A stretch of 64,000 nucleotides of DNA from Acinetobacter phage Acj61: sequence record GU911519.1; one strand, given 5' to 3'. Positions 7,823 to 16,670 of the stretch are shown here, in pieces; the stretch's first letter is position 1, and the number at the start of each line of letters is the position of its first letter. Under the pieces are notes generated by a model. That model did no database searches. It worked only from the letters and a program-made list of their open reading frames with translations, and was not told the DNA's origin. The translations under genes were made by a program, and so were the position numbers.

Positions 7823-8104
7823 TTACATTGCAGAATATGCTAAAATCAAGATGAACAAGATCAGCATAGGAATAAACGACGATAGTTTCGTGATTTTTGA
7901 TTCAACATTCGAAACTCTGTTTGCGAAGTTTTGAGGAGACTTGATCACAAACTTGTTCTGCCATTCGAGCGAACTGATTGGAAATTCACAATCATTGTTC
8001 TTAACCCAAAGTGTGATCAAGTCACCAGACTTGCGAACTGATGAAATCTGGAAGATTTGCAGCATTGACCAAATGATGATGTATTGTCCTTCTTTGTACT
8101 TCAT
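7823..8104 (-). CDS. hypothetical protein (93 aa)
   Basis: ORF with a hydrophobic C-terminus. Confidence 0.4.
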   Translation of the reverse strand: MKYKEGQYIIIWSMLQIFQISSVRKSGDLITLWVKNNDCEFPISSLEWQNKFVIKSPQNFANRVSNVESKITKLSSFIPMLILFILILAYSAM

Positions 8105-8114
8105 GATGATCTCC

Positions 8115-9179
8115 TTAAACTCGATAGCCTAATGATTTCTCTACTTCGTAAAGATATGTGTTGTGAACAAAGTTTTCCCAGAATTGGCGATCAACTTTAG
8201 CTGGCATACCATTTTTGCCTGCTGTTACACATGCTTTATCAACATCGACGATCAGGTCTTCAAGACATTCTTGGAAGGCTTTGAAGTTGATTTCACCTGC
8301 TTTGATTTGCTTAACAAATTCAGCTTGTCCAAGTGGATACTTCAGATCGCCTGTTTGATAGATTTCAAGCAACTGGATTCCACCTCGATAAGCATGACTC
8401 AGAGCTTTCCAATCGATACCTTCATTTGACTCTGCTTGACGTGCTCGAGCTCCATATTCATCCCATACTCGAGCTAGTTTCTCTTTAAGCTCGGATACTC
8501 GAATTGTGAGTTGGTGTTTGCGTCCTAACACATTATAGAACTCATTACCTTTCTCATCGACTTCTAATGAAGCAAATTCATTAAGAGGCAGCTTATCTTT
8601 GAAGTCTTTCAACTTATTGATTCGAACTGTGCTGATGTGACCAAGCTCAGAGAAGTTTTGATGTTTCGTCATTGCTTCATCTAAAGCCTGTTTGGCAGAA
8701 ATGTGACGTTCATCAGGCAATGTTACTACAACTTCTAAGACTTGGCGAAGAGCTGCAAGACGAGTTCCTTTGATGCCATATTTTGCTGCTTGTTTCTTGA
8801 CATAGCCAAGATATGCTTTCATATCAGTTGTATAGAAACGATGACGATTCTTTTGAATGTAGTTCCAAGTTGCATTGTGTTCAGCGAAGTTTTGATGAAC
8901 AGGAGTGTGAAGCATATCAATTGCAATGGTTTCACCTTTGGAAGCTAATTCAATGAAGTACTTGAGAGAGTAGTATTCACGATCTACGTCTTCTGAAGTG
9001 TTCTTCGAATTCTTAGTGTTTGTATCACGATTAAAATGAGATGGACCATTGCCAAGGATGATTTCTCGTGCTGTTGGTAAGAAGATTGCTTTGAAATCTT
9101 GGTCGCTTGTTGGAGTGTTCGTGCCATAAAGAGTTGAACCAAAAACTCCGTCGAAAATGATTTTGTGATCGATATTCAT
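8115..9179 (-). CDS. Pol-beta superfamily nucleotidyltransferase (354 aa)
   Basis: N-terminal 'GSTLYGTNTPTSDQDF', the GS-x(9-13)-DxD hallmark. Confidence 0.6.
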   Translation of the reverse strand: MNIDHKIIFDGVFGSTLYGTNTPTSDQDFKAIFLPTAREIILGNGPSHFNRDTNTKNSKNTSEDVDREYYSLKYFIELASKGETIAIDMLHTPVHQNFAEHNATWNYIQKNRHRFYTTDMKAYLGYVKKQAAKYGIKGTRLAALRQVLEVVVTLPDERHISAKQALDEAMTKHQNFSELGHISTVRINKLKDFKDKLPLNEFASLEVDEKGNEFYNVLGRKHQLTIRVSELKEKLARVWDEYGARARQAESNEGIDWKALSHAYRGGIQLLEIYQTGDLKYPLGQAEFVKQIKAGEINFKAFQECLEDLIVDVDKACVTAGKNGMPAKVDRQFWENFVHNTYLYEVEKSLGYRV

Positions 9180-9235
9180 AATGATCTCCAGTTAATATAA
9201 GAGCAATTATACTACAATTTGTGTTGTGTGTAAAC

Positions 9236-9270
9236 TAAAAATGGGAATTATTTTGAAAATAATTCCCATT
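9236..9270 (-). terminator. 15-bp perfect palindrome terminator AATGGGAATTATTTT/AAAATAATTCCCATT
   Basis: Minus strand reads the palindrome followed by TTTTTAG, downstream of the 9276..9572 gene. Confidence 0.65.
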
Positions 9271-9275
9271 GGTTA

Positions 9276-9572
9276 TTAAGGACGAGGACGAAGTGGAGCG
9301 TACCAGGCACCGTTACTGTACTCAACATCGAATGGAGGCTTGATGTTATTCTTGTAAAGCAAGTTGCTTGTGAATGGCTCTACCGAGATTTCTTTAACTG
9401 AGCCATCAGGCCAGATAAATTTTGCTACGGGTACTTTGAAGAACGAGTTGTACCCAATTTCTGCTCGAAACTGAATGTGTACTTGAACCCCATTTTCTTC
9501 GATGATGTAGTATGCAGTGTGTCGAAGAAGTTGAGTTGCAATACGAGCTTGTGCTTCCATATTAATTTCCAT
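9276..9572 (-). CDS. hypothetical protein (98 aa)
   Basis: ORF that abuts the upstream gene (9572/9573). Confidence 0.45.
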   Translation of the reverse strand: MEINMEAQARIATQLLRHTAYYIIEENGVQVHIQFRAEIGYNSFFKVPVAKFIWPDGSVKEISVEPFTSNLLYKNNIKPPFDVEYSNGAWYAPLRPRP

Positions 9573-9962
9573 TTAATCTACGATTTCTATGATTGGACAT
9601 ACTTTAGCCTTTTTAGCTTTGAAGTATGCCATGATTACACCGTCTGGTGTAGTGTCATCAGAGATTTTGCTTTTCGTCATGTACACAATGTACCCGACTA
9701 ATGCACTGGCTCCGAGTCCAGTTATAAATGCTACAATGACTTCCAAAACTGGATGGATAATCTTGTAGTCAGATATCGAGAATGGATACCAAAGAATCAG
9801 GAATCCAATTAAAACAAAGAAGAATATTAATCCAGCTAACGCTGCTGCGACATGCAATACGCTGAATACGAGTTTCCAGAAATATCCACATAAAGACGTA
9901 GGAATTTCATTTTGCAAGAATTTGTGTAGACGATAGTGCCAAGATTGAGTACTTACTTTCAT
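9573..9962 (-). CDS. membrane protein, paralog A (129 aa)
   Basis: 'SWHYRLHK...SLCGYFW' N-terminus, 2-3 TM segments, C-terminal 'AYFKAKKAKVCP'. Paralogous to 9959..10453. Confidence 0.55.
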   Translation of the reverse strand: MKVSTQSWHYRLHKFLQNEIPTSLCGYFWKLVFSVLHVAAALAGLIFFFVLIGFLILWYPFSISDYKIIHPVLEVIVAFITGLGASALVGYIVYMTKSKISDDTTPDGVIMAYFKAKKAKVCPIIEIVD

Positions 9963-10453
9963 TTCTTCTCTCCATAAGTGAAGTTTAGCTTAGGGCAAAT
10001 TTTCTGGTGTTTCGAACGAATATATGCAACAACCAGATTGTCACTAGAGTTGATTCGTTCCGAGATGCCTTGGCCTTTGAATTTCTGTCCAAGCATACTT
10101 ATTCCAGCAGTGATTGCTATCATTAAGGCTAACAGCCCAAATGTTACTCCAACGGCTAAAGCAAACGTTATTGCACCTACTAAAATTACTACAGGGTACA
10201 TCCAAAATGAAAGTGAGTTAGCTGAAAGATTGGTACTGATCACATTCACAAGCCCAGCATCAGCTATTCCCATAAATGTTATGAATCCACAAATAAACAA
10301 TACTGCTCCGATAAAGGATACTATTGCAGTCAGAATTGCAGAGAACAATGCTGTTGTCCAGAAATATAGACATAAACTCGACGGGATTCTGTGATCGCTC
10401 TTGATAAACAGCTTATTGAGGCGGTAGTGCCAGGATTTCATGTCAATGTTCAT
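9959..10453 (-). CDS. membrane protein, paralog B (164 aa)
   Basis: 'SWHYRLNK...SLCLYFW', multiple TM segments, C-terminal 'AYIRSKHQKICP'. Overlaps paralog A by 4 nt (ATGA). Confidence 0.55.
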   Translation of the reverse strand: MNIDMKSWHYRLNKLFIKSDHRIPSSLCLYFWTTALFSAILTAIVSFIGAVLFICGFITFMGIADAGLVNVISTNLSANSLSFWMYPVVILVGAITFALAVGVTFGLLALMIAITAGISMLGQKFKGQGISERINSSDNLVVAYIRSKHQKICPKLNFTYGEKK

Positions 10454-10516
10454 AATTTACCTCATCATGATATAAAGTTTGTAAGACCATTATATCATGA
10501 TTCCTGATAAAGTAAA

Positions 10517-10804
10517 CTACTTTTTAGCTTTAATTTCGATATTTTTTCGTTCTGCATATTCTGAACCGGCCTTAAATCCTAATCGAGCACAATTGTCTGT
10601 GCATTGGGTATAAATCCATTTCGACTTGATGAATTTGTAGAACTCTTCTGATTCTTGCTTACTTGGTGTCTTGAATTGTGAATAGACAACCATGGCACCT
10701 TCGACATAATTATTAAAGTCTTCTGGTGGCTTTGGTGGATTAGTTGGTGATGCGTTCGCAGCTGAAATTGATAGGCTGCATAACAAAATGAGGACTGCTC
10801 TCAT
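10517..10804 (-). CDS. secreted small protein (95 aa)
   Basis: Signal peptide 'MRAVLILLCSLSISAANA'. Confidence 0.5.
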   Translation of the reverse strand: MRAVLILLCSLSISAANASPTNPPKPPEDFNNYVEGAMVVYSQFKTPSKQESEEFYKFIKSKWIYTQCTDNCARLGFKAGSEYAERKNIEIKAKK

Positions 10805-11106
10805 AATGACTCTCCATAGCGAGATTGCTCATGCTGTAGGCATTCTTTCGAAAATACGTCTTCGAAGTTTTTGTCAACCCATGAACGGTCGGTTACATTA
10901 GTTAGTGGAATGGTATGAATATATTCGTATTTCAGAAGGCTCAATTGCTTCTTATTAGGACACATCGGCTGGCGATATATCCCATAAGAAAATCCAAGAG
11001 CTTTGATTTCTGTTTCGAACTTATTGTCTTTAGGTTTCAATGGCAAGAAAAACCACGCTGCCATGATGAGCGTTACAATAAGTCCTAGAACTGAACTCTT
11101 GTACAT
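10801..11106 (-). CDS. membrane-anchored small protein (101 aa)
   Basis: N-terminal TM segment 'VLGLIVTLIMAAWFFL'. ATGA-coupled to its neighbour. Confidence 0.5.
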   Translation of the reverse strand: MYKSSVLGLIVTLIMAAWFFLPLKPKDNKFETEIKALGFSYGIYRQPMCPNKKQLSLLKYEYIHTIPLTNVTDRSWVDKNFEDVFSKECLQHEQSRYGESL

Positions 11107-11108
11107 GG

Positions 11109-11534
11109 TTATTCCTTGTCAATTGGACCTACATTCTCAAACTTGTAGAGAGTATAGTTATTTGAGGTGTCCCAAATTCCGAAGAACACGGGACGATTGC
11201 ACTCTGTAAAGATTTTGTCCATTTGATCTTCTGACGCTGGGTCACGAAGCATTGGTCCGGCAACAGCACCTACTGTGTCCATAGCGCATGTGCGTAGACG
11301 AAAGATGCCATATGGGACTGTTGATCGTTTTCCATCTGAACTCATAAACGAAACACCAAAGCTATCGTATTTTGAGTTGTACACGATTTCAGCATAAGGC
11401 TGAAGAACAGGTGCAGATTGAGAGATTCGAGTACCATAAATTGTGTACAAGTCTGGACCAACCCTTTCCCAAGCATTTGCAGCTAAGGGACTCATTAACG
11501 CGAGTAATGGTAGAACGAATTTGAGGAATTTCAT
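11109..11534 (-). CDS. secreted protein (141 aa)
   Basis: Signal peptide 'MKFLKFVLPLLALMSPLAANA'. Confidence 0.55.
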   Translation of the reverse strand: MKFLKFVLPLLALMSPLAANAWERVGPDLYTIYGTRISQSAPVLQPYAEIVYNSKYDSFGVSFMSSDGKRSTVPYGIFRLRTCAMDTVGAVAGPMLRDPASEDQMDKIFTECNRPVFFGIWDTSNNYTLYKFENVGPIDKE

Positions 11535-11863
11535 CGATTGAGAAGACCTGTCATGTACTTAAGCATTAGTTGGTTCTTGTATGATTCACAACCTGCTTTG
11601 TCCTTAGCGTGCGTACAATAGTCCTTAAGTGATCGATCTTTACGATTAATCAAAGTGCCTATTGTAAATTGCTTGGTTTCATTCAAGCCTTGATAGTACA
11701 TAGCATCAAGTTCCATCGCAACAACGTCAATGCATTCCTTGTCTGCTGAGCAGTACACGTTTGCAGTTTTGTTAGATTGATCGTACTCGACGTTTACGTT
11801 CGCTGATGCCACGCCAGACGCAAGAACTGCGCCTAACATGACAATGAAAGTTTTGAGTTTCAT
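11531..11863 (-). CDS. secreted Cys-containing protein (110 aa)
   Basis: Signal peptide 'MKLKTFIVMLGAVLASGVASA', four Cys, overlap coupling with its neighbour. Confidence 0.55.
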   Translation of the reverse strand: MKLKTFIVMLGAVLASGVASANVNVEYDQSNKTANVYCSADKECIDVVAMELDAMYYQGLNETKQFTIGTLINRKDRSLKDYCTHAKDKAGCESYKNQLMLKYMTGLLNR

Positions 11864-12384
11864 TATTTGACCTTTAAAACATTGTGGTCCCTTAAGTATG
11901 TGGCTTTGCGTATCACAGAAGACGAGTATCTGTAACCAGCTCCTACGTTATAGCCTGCATTGTATGATGCCAATGCTTTAGGCATATTGCCTTTGTGAGT
12001 CTTTAACCAAGAATCAATTTCCACGTTTGCCCAATGTGCGGATCGATTAAAGTTTGAGAGCTCGCGTGAGATTTCTGCATGGCTCTTTGTGATGCCTTGC
12101 TGTTTCAAACGACTCTTAACAGTTGGGATATAATTTTGAAAGGCTCCGACAGCATGCCCATTCTTAATATTTATTCCAGCTGAACTCTCTTGCCATAAAA
12201 TTGCAGCCATGATGTACCCAACATTCAAGTTGGTCCCGTGGTAGTTTTTCTTGCCTTGCGACTGTCCAAACTGATATGCTTTTTGCATATTTGCTATTTG
12301 TGCATCGCTAAAATTATAGTTGGCGAATGCAACGGGGCTAATTAAAAATATAAGTGCCAGGATGGCAACTTTTACGAACTTCAT
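11863..12384 (-). CDS. periplasmic lytic transglycosylase (SLT domain, 173 aa)
   Basis: Signal peptide, catalytic 'ILWQESSAG...AVGAFQ' (E-S...GxxQ) and 'ASYNAGYNVG' (AYNAG motif). Confidence 0.7.
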   Translation of the reverse strand: MKFVKVAILALIFLISPVAFANYNFSDAQIANMQKAYQFGQSQGKKNYHGTNLNVGYIMAAILWQESSAGINIKNGHAVGAFQNYIPTVKSRLKQQGITKSHAEISRELSNFNRSAHWANVEIDSWLKTHKGNMPKALASYNAGYNVGAGYRYSSSVIRKATYLRDHNVLKVK

Positions 12385-12466
12385 ATATTCTCCTAAAACT
12401 GGTGGCCAGCTCTGTGATGTAATACGCTATGCGCTTCCTTATACTAAATGACGATAATAGTATTTA

Positions 12467-12583
12467 TTAATTGTACCATTTATCGAGTTCTTCGTCAGCA
12501 CCCTTGCAGGTGAAGATGAATCCAAAGACAAATAATCCAATTCCTAAAATGATTGAGAGACAAACCCAAAATGCAATACTCAT
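12467..12583 (-). CDS. small membrane protein (38 aa)
   Basis: Sub-threshold ORF 'MSIAFWVCLSIILGIGLFVFGFIFTCKGADEELDKWYN'. Confidence 0.25.
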   Translation of the reverse strand: MSIAFWVCLSIILGIGLFVFGFIFTCKGADEELDKWYN

Positions 12584-12677
12584 AACATTCTCAACATGAT
12601 TAAAGGTTCATTATACTCTATTTGAGCAACAACGTAAACCATATAATGTATATATTATATACAACCTGTAGAGACGC

Positions 12678-12698
12678 AAAAAGGACAACTAGTGTCCT
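12678..12698 (-). terminator. intrinsic terminator after the GIY-YIG gene
   Basis: Minus strand reads AGGACA-CTAGT-TGTCCT-TTTTTG. The stop codon sits in the loop. Confidence 0.55.
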
Positions 12699-13123
12699 TG
12701 AGTTTGTGCACGAGACTTGCCTTTGCACATTTTTGAGTACCAATCTTCATAGAAAACTGGGTCTTTCAATTTTTCTTGAAACACTTTTGATGCACGTTCA
12801 GCTCGTTCTTGGCGATCTTCTTTGGTCATAGTAGCATTGATGTAATCAAAACCACCTGTGCCTCCGAGCTTGAGATTGTATGTGTCATCTCGATCAATGA
12901 ACTCTTGATCTACAAGTTGAGATTCATGCTCAAACATTTCTTCTTGAGATGAATGAAATTTGAGGATTTCTTTTTCAAATTTGTCAGCTCCATATTTAGC
13001 CATAGCACGTTTGAGAATTGTGCCTGAACCCATGTAGCCATCATTGAGACGTTTGGTTTTGTGGGCTCCTATGTAAATGTGTTTAGTGACTGAATTTGTG
13101 ATTTTGTATGTGTAAAAATACAT
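12689..13123 (-). CDS. GIY-YIG homing endonuclease (seg-like, short; 144 aa)
   Basis: '[26 protein letters not shown]' GIY-YIG motif. Own minus-strand late promoter at 13186..13193. Confidence 0.8.
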   Translation of the reverse strand: MYFYTYKITNSVTKHIYIGAHKTKRLNDGYMGSGTILKRAMAKYGADKFEKEILKFHSSQEEMFEHESQLVDQEFIDRDDTYNLKLGGTGGFDYINATMTKEDRQERAERASKVFQEKLKDPVFYEDWYSKMCKGKSRAQTQGH

Positions 13124-13194
13124 GACTCTTTACCGTTTGTTCAACGTTGGAGAATCTCATAGAGAATACCATCAAGTGGCATATGTATTTATAC

Positions 13195-13234
13195 AAAACC
13201 AGCCAATTTGAGCATTGTTAAGAGGCTTGGCTGG
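13195..13234 (-). terminator. intrinsic terminator, then the minus-strand late promoter TATAAATA (13186-13193) for the GIY-YIG gene
   Basis: Minus strand reads CCAGCCAA-(20 nt)-TTGGCTGG-TTTTG-TATAAATA. Confidence 0.55.
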
Positions 13235-13241
13235 TCAATTT

Positions 13242-13580
13242 TTATTTGATGAACTTTTTGGTCACGTTGCCTGTTCGGCTTCGGTAAAGTCCTTTGAGTT
13301 TATCGTTGATGTCCCAATCACATTGAGTGAATAGAATAGGGTCACCTTTTTCTTGTTCATGAAATTTGATTCCGTAACAGTAACGCAGACGATCTGGTCC
13401 GATGAGTGAAATCAAATTGTTGATGTCCATATTGGCACGAACAATGCCGTTTAGATCATATTGGCGTTGTTGATATTCTTTTATGAGACGAGAAAATGAA
13501 CAGTTTCGATTGAGATGGATGCAGCCTAAAATGACTAAAGCTGCTACGAATGTGATCAAATAGAATACAGGTAGTGTCAT
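13242..13580 (-). CDS. membrane protein (112 aa)
   Basis: N-terminal TM segment 'LPVFYLITFVAALVILGCI'. Confidence 0.5.
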   Translation of the reverse strand: MTLPVFYLITFVAALVILGCIHLNRNCSFSRLIKEYQQRQYDLNGIVRANMDINNLISLIGPDRLRYCYGIKFHEQEKGDPILFTQCDWDINDKLKGLYRSRTGNVTKKFIK

Positions 13581-15122: not shown

Positions 15123-15194
15123 CAGAATCGCCTTCGATTCGAACGAAGATTAACGGGGTTGGAGCCCGTCGTGGTACCATTACACTAGCGACCT
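15123..15194 (-). tRNA. tRNA-Trp(CCA)-like, non-canonical acceptor end
   Basis: Anticodon arm ACGGG-CTCCAAC-CCCGT, T-arm CTTCG-TTCGAAT-CGAAG, D-arm GTGT/CCAC. The 1-72 pair is mismatched and the 3' end reads ..TGCCA. Confidence 0.4.
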
Positions 15195-15200
15195 ATAATT

Positions 15201-15276
15201 TGGTGCACGAGACATGATTCGAACATGTGACCTGCTGCTCTTCAGGCAGCCACTCTACCAACTGAGTTACTCGTGC
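15201..15276 (-). tRNA. tRNA-Phe(GAA)
   Basis: Clean cloverleaf by hand: loop CTGAAGA, T-loop GTTCGAATC, CCA encoded. Confidence 0.8.
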
Positions 15277-15282
15277 GTTATT

Positions 15283-15356
15283 TGGTAGCGATATCCAGAC
15301 TCGAACTGGAACCTTTGGGTTATGAGCCCTATGTGCAACCTTTACACCATATCGCG
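15283..15356 (-). tRNA. tRNA-Met or Ile2 (CAT)
   Basis: Anticodon loop CTCATAA, T-arm TCCAG-TTCGAGT-CTGGA, CCA encoded. The anticodon stem has one A.A mismatch and the 1-72 pair is C.T. Confidence 0.6.
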
Positions 15357-15362
15357 ATAATT

Positions 15363-15436
15363 TGGAAGTCGCAAAAGGGATCGAACCTTTACTAACAGAG
15401 TCAAATTCTGTGGTGCTACCATTACACCATGCGACA
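15363..15436 (-). tRNA. tRNA-Gln(TTG)
   Basis: Anticodon loop ATTTGAC in stem ACAGA/TCTGT, T-loop TTCGATC, CCA encoded. Confidence 0.75.
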
Positions 15437-15526
15437 ATTGATAGTTTTTGATCTGCTGAACTATAACAGCAGCTCGACAGTAAGTTCATCGAGTCTCAAG
15501 AAGTGTATTTCTACACTTAGACAAAT

Positions 15527-15602
15527 TGGTCTCCCTAGTTGGATTTGAACCAACGACATCTTCTTTCCAAAAGAAGTAGGCTACCAGACTGCCCTATAGA
15601 GA
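15527..15602 (-). tRNA. tRNA-Pro(TGG)
   Basis: Loop TTTGGAA in stem CTTCT/AGAAG, T-arm GTTGG-TTCAAAT-CCAAC, CCA encoded. Confidence 0.8.
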
Positions 15603-15659
15603 GATAACAAAAATAATGGATTAGTGAGCATTGTAAAGAGGCAAATCCATATCTGAAAT

Positions 15660-15735
15660 TGGTCGTCGAGACATGATTCGAACATGTGACCTGCGGATTA
15701 TCGGTCCGTTGCTCTACCAACTGAGCTACTCGACG
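15660..15735 (-). tRNA. tRNA-Ile(GAT), with C at position 33
   Basis: D-arm TAGCTCAGTTGGTAGAGC, loop CCGATAA. T-arm and variable loop are identical to tRNA-Phe. Perfect 7-bp acceptor, CCA encoded. Confidence 0.6.
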
Positions 15736-15830
15736 GGAGGTGAAACTGGGATTTGAACCCAGGGCCCCATATCACTATGAGACGGTAGTTTTCAAGACTA
15801 CTGCAATAAGCCAGACTCTGCCACTTCACC
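15736..15830 (-). tRNA. tRNA-Ser(TGA), type II
   Basis: Anticodon arm GTAGT-CTTGAAA-ACTAC, long variable arm, T-arm CTGGG-TTCAAAT-CCCAG. Its 3' ..TCC abuts the 5' end of tRNA-Ile with no spacer. Confidence 0.7.
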
Positions 15831-16034
15831 AAAATTCTGTGATAGTTTTGTTTATGTAACGACCAAGCTCTATCAACTTCGCCAATCATTCAAAAGAATG
15901 ACAACATTTTTCAATTCTCACTTGAGGTGGAGGAACACCTTGTTAGGACAGCTCCAAAACGTTCTAAAGTTTCGTAAGGTATCCCGAGCTAAATCAGTCA
16001 TTGCGCTTATGGCTATGATTCAACTACTAACATT

Positions 16035-16110
16035 TGGCTCCCCAGACACGGATCGAACGTGTGACCCACAGATTAACAGTCTGCTGCTCTACCAACTGAG
16101 CTACTGAGGA
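16035..16110 (-). tRNA. tRNA-Asn(GTT)
   Basis: Very similar to E. coli tRNA-Asn (TCCTCAG..CTGTTAA..), full cloverleaf, CCA encoded. Confidence 0.85.
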
Positions 16111-16143
16111 AGAAATTGTTTAATTTATTATAATTATTTATAT

Positions 16144-16218
16144 TGGTTGGACCACACAGATTCGAACTGAGACTAACGACATCACAAATCGCGGTGCTAA
16201 CCATTACACCATGGTCCA
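16144..16218 (-). tRNA. tRNA-His(GTG)
   Basis: Loop TTGTGAT, G at -1 encoded, perfect acceptor TGGACCA/TGGTCCA, CCA encoded. One T.T mismatch in the T-stem. Confidence 0.7.
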
Positions 16219-16226
16219 CATCAAAT

Positions 16227-16302
16227 TGGTACTCTTATCGGGACTTGAACCCGAGTTTTCAACGTGAAAGGCTGACGTCCTAACCGACTAGACGATAAGA
16301 GC
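16227..16302 (-). tRNA. tRNA-Glu(TTC)
   Basis: Loop CTTTCAC, T-arm TCGGG-TTCAAGT-CCCGA, CCA encoded. Confidence 0.75.
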
Positions 16303-16308
16303 AATGTT

Positions 16309-16394
16309 TGGTGGGGCCGGTGAGACTTGAACTCACAGATGCTTTTGGCGTCGGATTTACAGTCCGATGGGGTTACCAATTTTCCTACGTCCCC
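16309..16394 (-). tRNA. tRNA-Tyr(GTA), long variable arm
   Basis: Anticodon arm TCGGA-CTGTAAA-TCCGA, 14-nt variable arm, T-arm GTGAG-TTCAAGT-CTCAC, CCA encoded. One acceptor mismatch. Confidence 0.65.
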
Positions 16395-16410
16395 GTAGTA
16401 ATTCTTAAAG

Positions 16411-16481
16411 TTCTGGCACGAGTAATCGAAACTCGGTGACTGGAGTACAAAACCAGCATAATACCACTATATGATGCCAGA
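16411..16481 (-). tRNA. tRNA-Thr(TGT), CCA not encoded
   Basis: Acceptor TCTGGCA/TGCCAGA, loop TTTGTAC, T-arm CGAGT-TTCGATT-ACTCG. Lies inside a 15-bp extended helix. Confidence 0.6.
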
Positions 16482-16594
16482 ACTTTAAGAACTATGTTGT
16501 TTAGTTGATATAGACAGTATATCATACTTTTCCTAACAGCATATTGATTTGCTGTTGGGGCGTGTGTTTCTATAATTATATTTATACAACAATC

Positions 16595-16670
16595 TGGAGG
16601 CGTCAACAGGACTCGAACCTGCATCGACGCGGATTTGCAATCCGCCGTATAACCATTCTACCACAACGCC
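16595..16670 (-). tRNA. tRNA-Cys(GCA)
   Basis: Anticodon arm GCGGA-TTGCAAA-TCCGC, T-loop TTCGAGT, CCA encoded. Confidence 0.7.

Follow-up and report, generated by a model that had tools for sequence, protein, structure and literature searches.

Gene content and layout of the locus

This study concerns a block of eight genes, here called w1 to w8, in Acinetobacter phage Acj61. The DNA analysed (the window) is a stretch of 64,000 nucleotides (nt) from sequence record GU911519.1, in which a program-made list of open reading frames (ORFs) gives eight consecutive minus-strand ORFs from 12384 down to 9276, exactly where a preceding interpretation made from the letters of the DNA (the sequence-only reading) had placed them. 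Judging from homology and gene order, the region is very probably this phage's counterpart of the early-gene stretch vs.1–vs…rI of T4, with the genes arranged as is usual among T4-like phages of Acinetobacter (Twarogvirinae). The eight genes are as follows, with lengths in amino acids (aa) and predicted transmembrane (TM) segments.

w1, 12384-11863, minus strand: 173 aa, T4 Vs.1 ortholog with a predicted signal peptide and a predicted SLT/GH23-like lytic-transglycosylase fold
w2, 11863-11531, minus strand: 110 aa, T4 Vs ortholog with a predicted signal peptide and four invariant Cys
w3, 11534-11109, minus strand: 141 aa, predicted to be exported, beta-rich, two invariant Cys; found 3' of vs in several genera
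w4, 11106-10801, minus strand: 101 aa, predicted N-terminal membrane anchor and a domain of ~75 aa with two invariant Cys
w5, 10804-10517, minus strand: 95 aa, RI antiholin (lysis inhibition) by family assignment
w6, 10453-9959, minus strand: 164 aa, predicted membrane protein, about four TM segments
w7, 9962-9573, minus strand: 129 aa, shorter w6 paralog, two to three TM segments
w8, 9572-9276, minus strand: 98 aa, without signal peptide or TM segment

From w1 to w8, the successive junctions measure -1 (TAATG), -4 (ATGA), +2, -4 (ATGA), +63, -4 (ATGA) and 0 nt. Packing is tight within w1-w5 and within w6-w8, and the ATGA overlaps that had been described as running through the whole block are present at three of the seven junctions, with TAATG at one and a 63-nt gap between w5 and w6. 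A single translationally coupled operon, as the sequence-only reading had it, would have no internal promoter and coupling at every junction; the locus instead shows the gap, a TG-extended promoter-like site and a predicted hairpin over the ribosome-binding site of w6. With a promoter-like site in the 63-nt w5-w6 gap, a single simple operon of all eight genes is improbable.

Export calls were made with a rule devised for this analysis, based on hydropathy and AXA sites, and not with SignalP or another trained predictor. Under this simple rule, AXA-type sites follow a hydrophobic core in w1 (AFA↓N), w2 (ASA↓N), w3 (ANA↓W) and w5 (ANA↓S), which classes these four signal peptides as cleavable, and w4 has an uncleaved hydrophobic N-terminal segment (residues 2-25), in agreement with the five N-terminal signal peptides or anchors reported earlier for the block. 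Long hydrophobic regions, two in each protein, are also present in w6 and w7, and none was found in w8. An N-terminal hydrophobic segment occurs in 7 of 81 rough gene calls of the window, and five of these seven are the consecutive genes w1-w5. In simulation, a run of at least five such genes has a probability of 6.7e-5, and the clustering of genes with export signals in w1-w5 is unlikely to be chance. Invariant Cys residues number four in w2 and two each in w3, w4 and w5, and these conserved pairs would fit periplasmic disulfides.

The RI antiholin and the adjacent gene w4

By its family relationships, w5 is an RI antiholin. It matches the Pfam family PF24205 (T4-like antiholin RI) with E 1.1e-30 and 105.7 bits, where the cut-off is 27, and phrog_1246 ('lysis inhibition') with E 8.5e-28. 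Alignment with T4 RI gives 27% identity (BLASTP, E 8e-7), and residues 30-95 match 6PSH and 6PSK, chains of the solved T4 antiholin (E 4e-4). The N-terminal Sec signal peptide that directs RI to the periplasm is predicted for w5 as well (hydrophobic core, ANA↓S at residue 18, simple rule only), and C68 and C72 are invariant in nine RI sequences. In T4, export of RI with a cleavable signal peptide has been demonstrated experimentally (PMC8385771), and RI forms a T/RI dimer by attaching to the C-terminal domain of holin T in the periplasm, which blocks hole-forming oligomerisation and delays lysis upon superinfection (PMC11413866). The T4 accessory genes rI.1 and rI.-1 have been reported to modulate lysis inhibition (PMC2962797). 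By homology, the lysis-inhibition mechanism of T4 RI may be carried over to w5. Lysis inhibition, one of the roles guessed for the block in the sequence-only reading, thus holds for one gene of the eight.

The gene directly upstream, w4, belongs to phrog_6298 (E 1e-36) and has homologs in 131 phage records, 50 of them Escherichia phages (tblastn). In the alignment, the family keeps the N-terminal anchor, the motifs CPN(K/R) and W..NF..F…C, and two invariant Cys. In each of the nine genomes and contigs inspected, a set that is not a census, a w4-type gene precedes rI with no more than one other gene between them; the set includes the phages ZZ1, Acj9, Minot, SP18, MN04 and Cronus and the metagenome relatives L005 and L013. 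In SP18 (Shigella phage, Gaprivervirus) and MN04 (Escherichia phage, Dhakavirus), tk is followed by the w4-like gene and then by rI; the gene after the w4-like gene in SP18 matches PF24205 (E 2e-30), and its MN04 counterpart aligns with the RI family. In Cronus (Erwinia phage, Roskildevirus), gp099 stands between tk and the w4-like gene, and a homolog of rI.1 stands between the w4-like gene and rI. This conserved adjacency, together with the predicted location of the protein, makes w4 a candidate accessory of lysis inhibition.

Vs.1 and its predicted lytic-transglycosylase fold

The product of w1 is 44% identical to T4 Vs.1 (BLASTP, E 1e-50) and is assigned to phrog_600, with a sub-threshold SLT match: against Pfam SLT (PF01464) it scores 18.3 bits, the gathering cut-off being 21.3 (E 0.0017). 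The match is shared by the family, as 43 of 48 Vs.1 members show it at E <= 0.01 (best 1.4e-6), and Vs.1 of phage CF1, at 23.7 bits, passes the Pfam cut-off. The SLT motifs that had been noticed in the first gene of the block are present in w1 (QESS, GAFQ and SYNAG) and conserved across the family; E66, S68, G80, Q83, Y141, N142 and G144, which cover the presumed catalytic Glu in its E-S motif and the downstream motifs G-x-x-Q and Y-N-x-G, are invariant in 48 of 48 Vs.1 sequences. E66 was taken as catalytic by motif position, not by superposition.

A search of the PDB with Vs.1 alone or with a six-sequence profile returned nothing, and the 48-sequence Vs.1 profile retrieved only a goose-type lysozyme (E 0.084). 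Because these sequence searches were uninformative, a comparison of folds was needed. The AlphaFold2 model of Vs.1, built from 48 sequences with a predicted local distance difference test score (pLDDT) of 89.2, has the predicted lysozyme-like alpha-helical SLT catalytic fold, and in a Foldseek search of the PDB its top 13 matches are all lytic transglycosylases, but with E values of only 0.02-0.1. At the level of the modelled fold, w1 is therefore supported as a predicted SLT-type enzyme. The SLT resemblance of Vs.1 has long been known and was called "marginal" (PMC1524935). A second PHROG match of w1, itself marginal (E 0.007), is to the family 'internal virion protein with endolysin domain'. 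An identical Vs.1 protein was found in 46 blocks of the contig collection, one of which is a 163,409-bp scaffold.

Vs and w3

The product of w2 matches phrog_1256 (Vs, 'valyl-tRNA synthetase modifier') with E 1.1e-32 and is 32% identical to T4 Vs (BLASTP, E 6e-8); it has both the family membership of T4 Vs and the place beside vs.1. In metagenome copies of the locus, PF26829 is recorded for the product of the same position and length (110 aa), and a direct search of the Pfam copy with w2 gave no PF26829 match. The Pfam matches that w2 did give, Leg1 and YqgQ, fall short of the cut-off and were put down to noise from hydrophobicity or composition. Every Vs that was aligned, T4 Vs (L003, 4887-5234) included, carries a predicted Sec-type signal peptide and four invariant Cys. 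The Vs family is accordingly predicted to be periplasmic from its sequences, which is hard to reconcile with the cytoplasmic role conveyed by the name 'valyl-tRNA synthetase modifier'. The function of Vs is of current interest, given that vs was the T4 gene most depleted, and hence most needed, in minimal medium in a 2025 preprint (10.1101/2025.11.20.689424).

Homologs of w3 were found in 101 phage records (tblastn). The homolog in CF1 (Citrobacter phage, Moonvirus) shares 25% identity, has a signal peptide and immediately follows vs.1-vs, with the tk cluster coming next. When w3 was used in an exhaustive profile search, about 20 small cluster representatives (71-145 aa, mostly 120-145) were retrieved together with long repetitive proteins (536-1496 aa), and at least four of the seven long proteins scanned against Pfam have type-IX secretion sorting-domain matches. 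The N-terminal stretch of mature w3 (residues 20-50, AWERVGPDLYTIYGTRISQSAPVLQP) is similar to a single unit of a repeat of ~55 aa (pattern VVWED.R.G..DIYGARV.QSG.VLDP; compare P0066 and P0073) that occurs four to eight times per long protein. This likeness spans a single unit of ~31 residues (W-E-D…I-Y-G-x-R-V-x-Q-S-G-x-V-L-D-P, hhalign probability 64%); it was taken as a common beta-hairpin motif and rejected as a functional clue.

The membrane proteins w6 and w7, and w8

The sequence-only reading had recognised two paralogous membrane proteins downstream, and w6 and w7 are indeed related to each other at 25% identity (BLASTP, E 5e-12). Both belong to phrog_944 (E 3e-35 for w6 and 2e-31 for w7), and the family of w6 has matches in 503 T4-like phage records of many genera (tblastn). 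Its members combine conserved soluble ends with a variable core of two to four TM segments; the N-terminal motifs SWHYxL and P..LC.Y, the C-terminal motif Y..AK..K(I/V)CP and two invariant Cys are characteristic of the alignment. Weak Pfam matches of w6 and w7 (CclA_1, SUR7 and Kinocilin) are under the cut-off and were set aside as noise of the same hydrophobic or compositional kind. Copy number varies from zero in L005 through one in ZZ1, Acj9 and Minot to two in L013 and in the window. Elsewhere, the w6-like gene of Mosigvirus HX01 adjoins nrdC.11, several genes from rI, and that of Aeromonas phage AS-gz is near an RNA ligase gene. The last gene, w8, matches phrog_6285 (E 1e-25); among phage records it is confined to Acinetobacter T4-like phages and one Tegunavirus record, and in L005 and L013 it directly follows rI.

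Small exported proteins next to small multi-TM proteins, with early expression, bear a general likeness to superinfection exclusion of the T4 Imm/Sp type, to which the block had been compared before: membrane proteins would stop DNA entry, and a periplasmic protein would inhibit the incoming tail lysozyme, a part for which w3, being small, exported and beta-rich like some lysozyme inhibitors, could be considered. Such a role is very improbable here. When Imm of T4, a protein with two TM segments, and Sp, a lysozyme inhibitor of the periplasm, were compared with ten local proteins by BLASTP and phmmer, no E fell below 0.1 (best about 0.12), so that none of the eight proteins shows similarity to either, and no superinfection-exclusion or immunity family is among the PHROG matches. 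In addition, searches of NCBIfam and PADLOC returned nothing for any of the eight save one meaningless match (E 0.09), and PADLOC gave no sign of a defence or anti-defence role for them.

Gene order in relatives and modular make-up of the block

In T4, the order is vs.1, vs, tk.4-tk, rI.1, rI and rI.-1. The sequence-only reading had regarded the module as lying outside T4, a view that does not stand, as vs.1, vs and rI are T4 genes and occur there in the same order. The order in ZZ1, Acj9 and Minot is a GIY-YIG endonuclease gene, vs.1, vs, a gene for ~141 aa, one for ~100 aa, rI, a membrane-protein gene, a gene for ~80 aa, a terminator and the nrdC.11 nucleotidyltransferase gene. The block order is also present in the metagenome relatives L005 and L013, and the five-gene order w1-w5 is kept in ZZ1, Acj9, Minot, L005 and L013. 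Megablast found nothing for the locus among 50,697 phage records; its relatives emerged only with blastn, at about 64-70% identity. From these comparisons, the block of the window is a member of the vs.1–vs–rI lineage, counted as divergent because megablast found no match in the phage collection. Annotated homologs in the same order, which the sequence-only reading had named as the outcome that would tell against it, are largely what the relatives offer: the order recurs in ZZ1, Acj9 and Minot, but only RI is experimentally established. In the annotations of these relatives, Vs has a named function, and the six besides RI and Vs are listed as hypothetical or as 'membrane protein'.

In the Tevenvirinae, the tk cluster parts the vs.1-vs sub-block from that of rI; here no tk cluster stands at this position, which makes the sub-blocks contiguous. 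Comparative gene order thus presents the block as [vs.1–vs–w3] + [w4–rI] + [membrane protein(s), w8], conserved sub-blocks that are joined and not one dedicated machine. It is unlikely that all eight genes, or at least w1-w5, form one periplasmic system, for example a superinfection-sensing and lysis-inhibition apparatus that feeds RI and holin T, even though w1-w5 are translationally coupled (-1, -4, +2, -4), are all predicted to be exported or anchored in a run that chance would rarely produce, and keep their five-gene order in the five relatives named above, with the w4-rI and vs-w3 adjacencies persisting in distant genera. In T4, SP18, MN04, CF1 and Cronus, a tk cluster of cytoplasmic genes separates vs.1-vs from rI, and T4 lysis inhibition works without homologs of w3 or w4 in the rI–vs.8 region that was compared. 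Moreover, w6-family genes are unlinked to rI in HX01 and AS-gz, a candidate promoter precedes w6, and gene content 3' of rI varies among close relatives.

Expression signals

The candidate expression signals in and around the block are as follows.

12610-12638, minus strand: early-type promoter-like site TTTACG-17-TATAAT, 5' of the block, 10 of 12 consensus matches (candidate)
10489-10516, minus strand: internal promoter-like site TTTACT-16-TATAAT, TG-extended, in the rI-w6 gap, 10 of 12 consensus matches (candidate)
10452-10520, minus strand: predicted RNA hairpin, minimum free energy (MFE) -20.6 kcal/mol, z = -3.2, equalled by 1 of 200 shuffles
9240-9270, minus strand: intrinsic terminator at the end of the block, 14-bp stem, loop of 3, T-run; MFE -14.4 kcal/mol, z = -4.4
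9206-9234: early-type promoter-like site after the terminator (candidate)

In T4, early promoters carry a -35 element of the GTTTAC type. The terminator, a 14-pair stem from 9270 to 9240 with its loop of 3 and T-run, closes the block as the sequence-only reading had stated. The hairpin at 10452-10520 encloses the internal promoter-like site, and its 3' arm pairs with the ribosome-binding site and start codon of w6. Transcripts reading through from rI would have the ribosome-binding site of w6 covered by the hairpin; initiation at the internal promoter, at about 10481, would give a transcript without the 5' arm, from which w6 could be translated. This suggests that w6-w8 may be translated only from their own transcript. 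A similar arrangement of a hairpin over the ribosome-binding site is found in the T4 genes e, soc and I-TevI.

The T4-type late promoter motif TATAAATA is absent from 9200-12700. Across the whole window, this motif was found 18 times, against 2.9 expected.

The early type of the promoter-like sites and the lack of a late-promoter motif inside the block also bear on a lysis cassette, in which w1 would be a secreted endolysin and w4 and w3 an inner- and outer-membrane spanin pair. The predicted muralytic fold and signal sequence of w1 would suit this arrangement, as would the N-terminal anchor of w4, which is typical of i-spanins. However, the signal peptide of w3 ends in LAANA↓W without a lipobox Cys, so w3 is no o-spanin lipoprotein, and the block holds no other lipobox candidate; nor is an endolysin or spanin family the best PHROG match of any of the eight. 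T4, furthermore, has vs.1 alongside a dedicated endolysin, e, and a spanin pair, pseT.3/pseT.2. Of the explanations considered, a lysis cassette is the least credible.

Neighbouring features

Between the upstream promoter-like site and vs.1 lies a further, very short ORF:

12467-12583, minus strand: mini-ORF of 38 aa, very hydrophobic, MSIAFWVCLSIILGIGLFVFGFIFTCKGADEELDKWYN

Its status as a gene is uncertain, and it has no gene call in the metagenome copies of the locus.

Farther upstream, an Rfam search detected a near-perfect, full-length match to the abiF RNA motif (RF03085) at 13198-13234 on the minus strand (58 bits, gathering score 37). The match is directly 5' of a late-promoter motif TATAAATA (13193-13186) and of a GIY-YIG homing-endonuclease gene (13123-12689); the metagenome copy L010 has it too, and it is lacking 5' of the homologous endonuclease genes in ZZ1, Acj9 and Minot. 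Over 9000-13300, Rfam gave besides abiF only an insignificant snoRNA match (E 0.73). Also in the surroundings are 13 clustered minus-strand tRNA genes (15124-16670) and two small flanking minus-strand ORFs with hydrophobic segments, at 13242-13580 (112 aa, segment N-terminal) and at 7823-8104 (93 aa, segment C-terminal).

Proposed roles and their weight

Within the local vs.1–vs…rI stretch, each sub-block can be given a putative role. In the first, Vs.1 would be exported via Sec and, with its predicted lytic-transglycosylase fold and intact Glu-Ser motif, would act on peptidoglycan; Vs and w3, as small exported Cys proteins, may be partners or regulators of Vs.1 at the cell wall. In the second, RI would be exported to the periplasm, bind the periplasmic domain of holin T and block hole formation on superinfection, as T4 RI does, and the anchored w4 protein may assist this step from the inner membrane, as its adjacency to rI and predicted location suggest. 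The third would supply two diverged copies of a membrane protein and the small cytoplasmic w8, probably from a promoter of their own. Taken jointly, the proposals of w4 as a so far overlooked accessory in lysis inhibition of the T4 type, and of Vs.1, Vs and w3 as an exported trio acting on the cell wall, are put forward tentatively and are less likely than not to hold. In that capacity w4 could act in the periplasm with RI, with the C-terminal domain of holin T or with both, in the slot of T4 rI.1. If the trio exists, Vs is periplasmic, and the label valyl-tRNA synthetase modifier is either incomplete or attached to the wrong ORF.

Several points weigh against this account. The export calls come from a simple hydropathy and AXA rule instead of a trained predictor, the score of w1 is under the Pfam SLT gathering cut-off, and peptidoglycan cleavage is a prediction for every Vs.1. 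Among the eight proteins, only RI has an established mechanism, and it was established in T4, at 22-27% identity. A homolog of holin T was not detected in the 64,000-nt window (tblastn, E > 4); in T4, about 100 kb separate t from rI, and holin T homologs are present in 67 Acinetobacter phage records. Promoter-like sites are not commoner here than in shuffled sequence, and both the internal promoter and the regulation by the hairpin are inferred. Finally, the coupling of w1-w5 and their conservation across Twarogvirinae, which are discounted here, could mean a common function.

As an annotation, the outcome is routine: a divergent T4-like phage has the expected vs.1–vs–rI block. Beyond this, the locus provides leads for the question, now more than 70 years old, of which proteins act in lysis inhibition besides RI, RIII and T, as an uncharacterised anchored protein, w4, tracks rI across genera. 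In this divergent member of a known block, the points of interest are the candidacy of w4 as an accessory and the conflict over the predicted location of Vs.

Comparison with known systems

The closest counterparts are the loci of ZZ1, Acj9 and Minot (Twarogvirinae), whose genes have homologs in the window in the same order. However, the proteins of the window are only 25-57% identical to theirs, with no megablast-level match in the DNA. The membrane protein is present in two copies here and in one there, and the window lacks the DksA-like zinc-finger gene that comes after rI in ZZ1 and Minot.

Like RI of the T4 rI locus (rI.1, rI and rI.-1), w5 has PF24205, a similar size, an N-terminal signal peptide, a Cys pair and a place 3' of vs.1 and vs, whereas its identity to T4 RI is only 22-27%. 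By BLASTP, none of the eight proteins is a homolog of T4 rI.1 or rI.-1, and the slot 5' of rI holds the unrelated anchored w4 protein. The tk cluster that stands between vs and rI in T4 is absent here.

Likewise, w2 is homologous to T4 Vs (PF26829, phrog_1256), similar to it in size and located directly 3' of vs.1. In contrast to the T4 annotation, the signal peptide and four Cys of the whole family predict a periplasmic protein, which is difficult to square with binding of a cytoplasmic synthetase.

Compared with the family-1 lytic transglycosylases (GH23: Slt70, MltC and MltE of E. coli; Slt and MltF of P. aeruginosa), w1 would be a stand-alone catalytic domain of 150 aa with no accessory domains. 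Its sequence identity to the solved members is 13-17%, and it scores under the Pfam gathering cut-off. The resemblance of w1 to these enzymes is one of predicted fold and conserved motifs.

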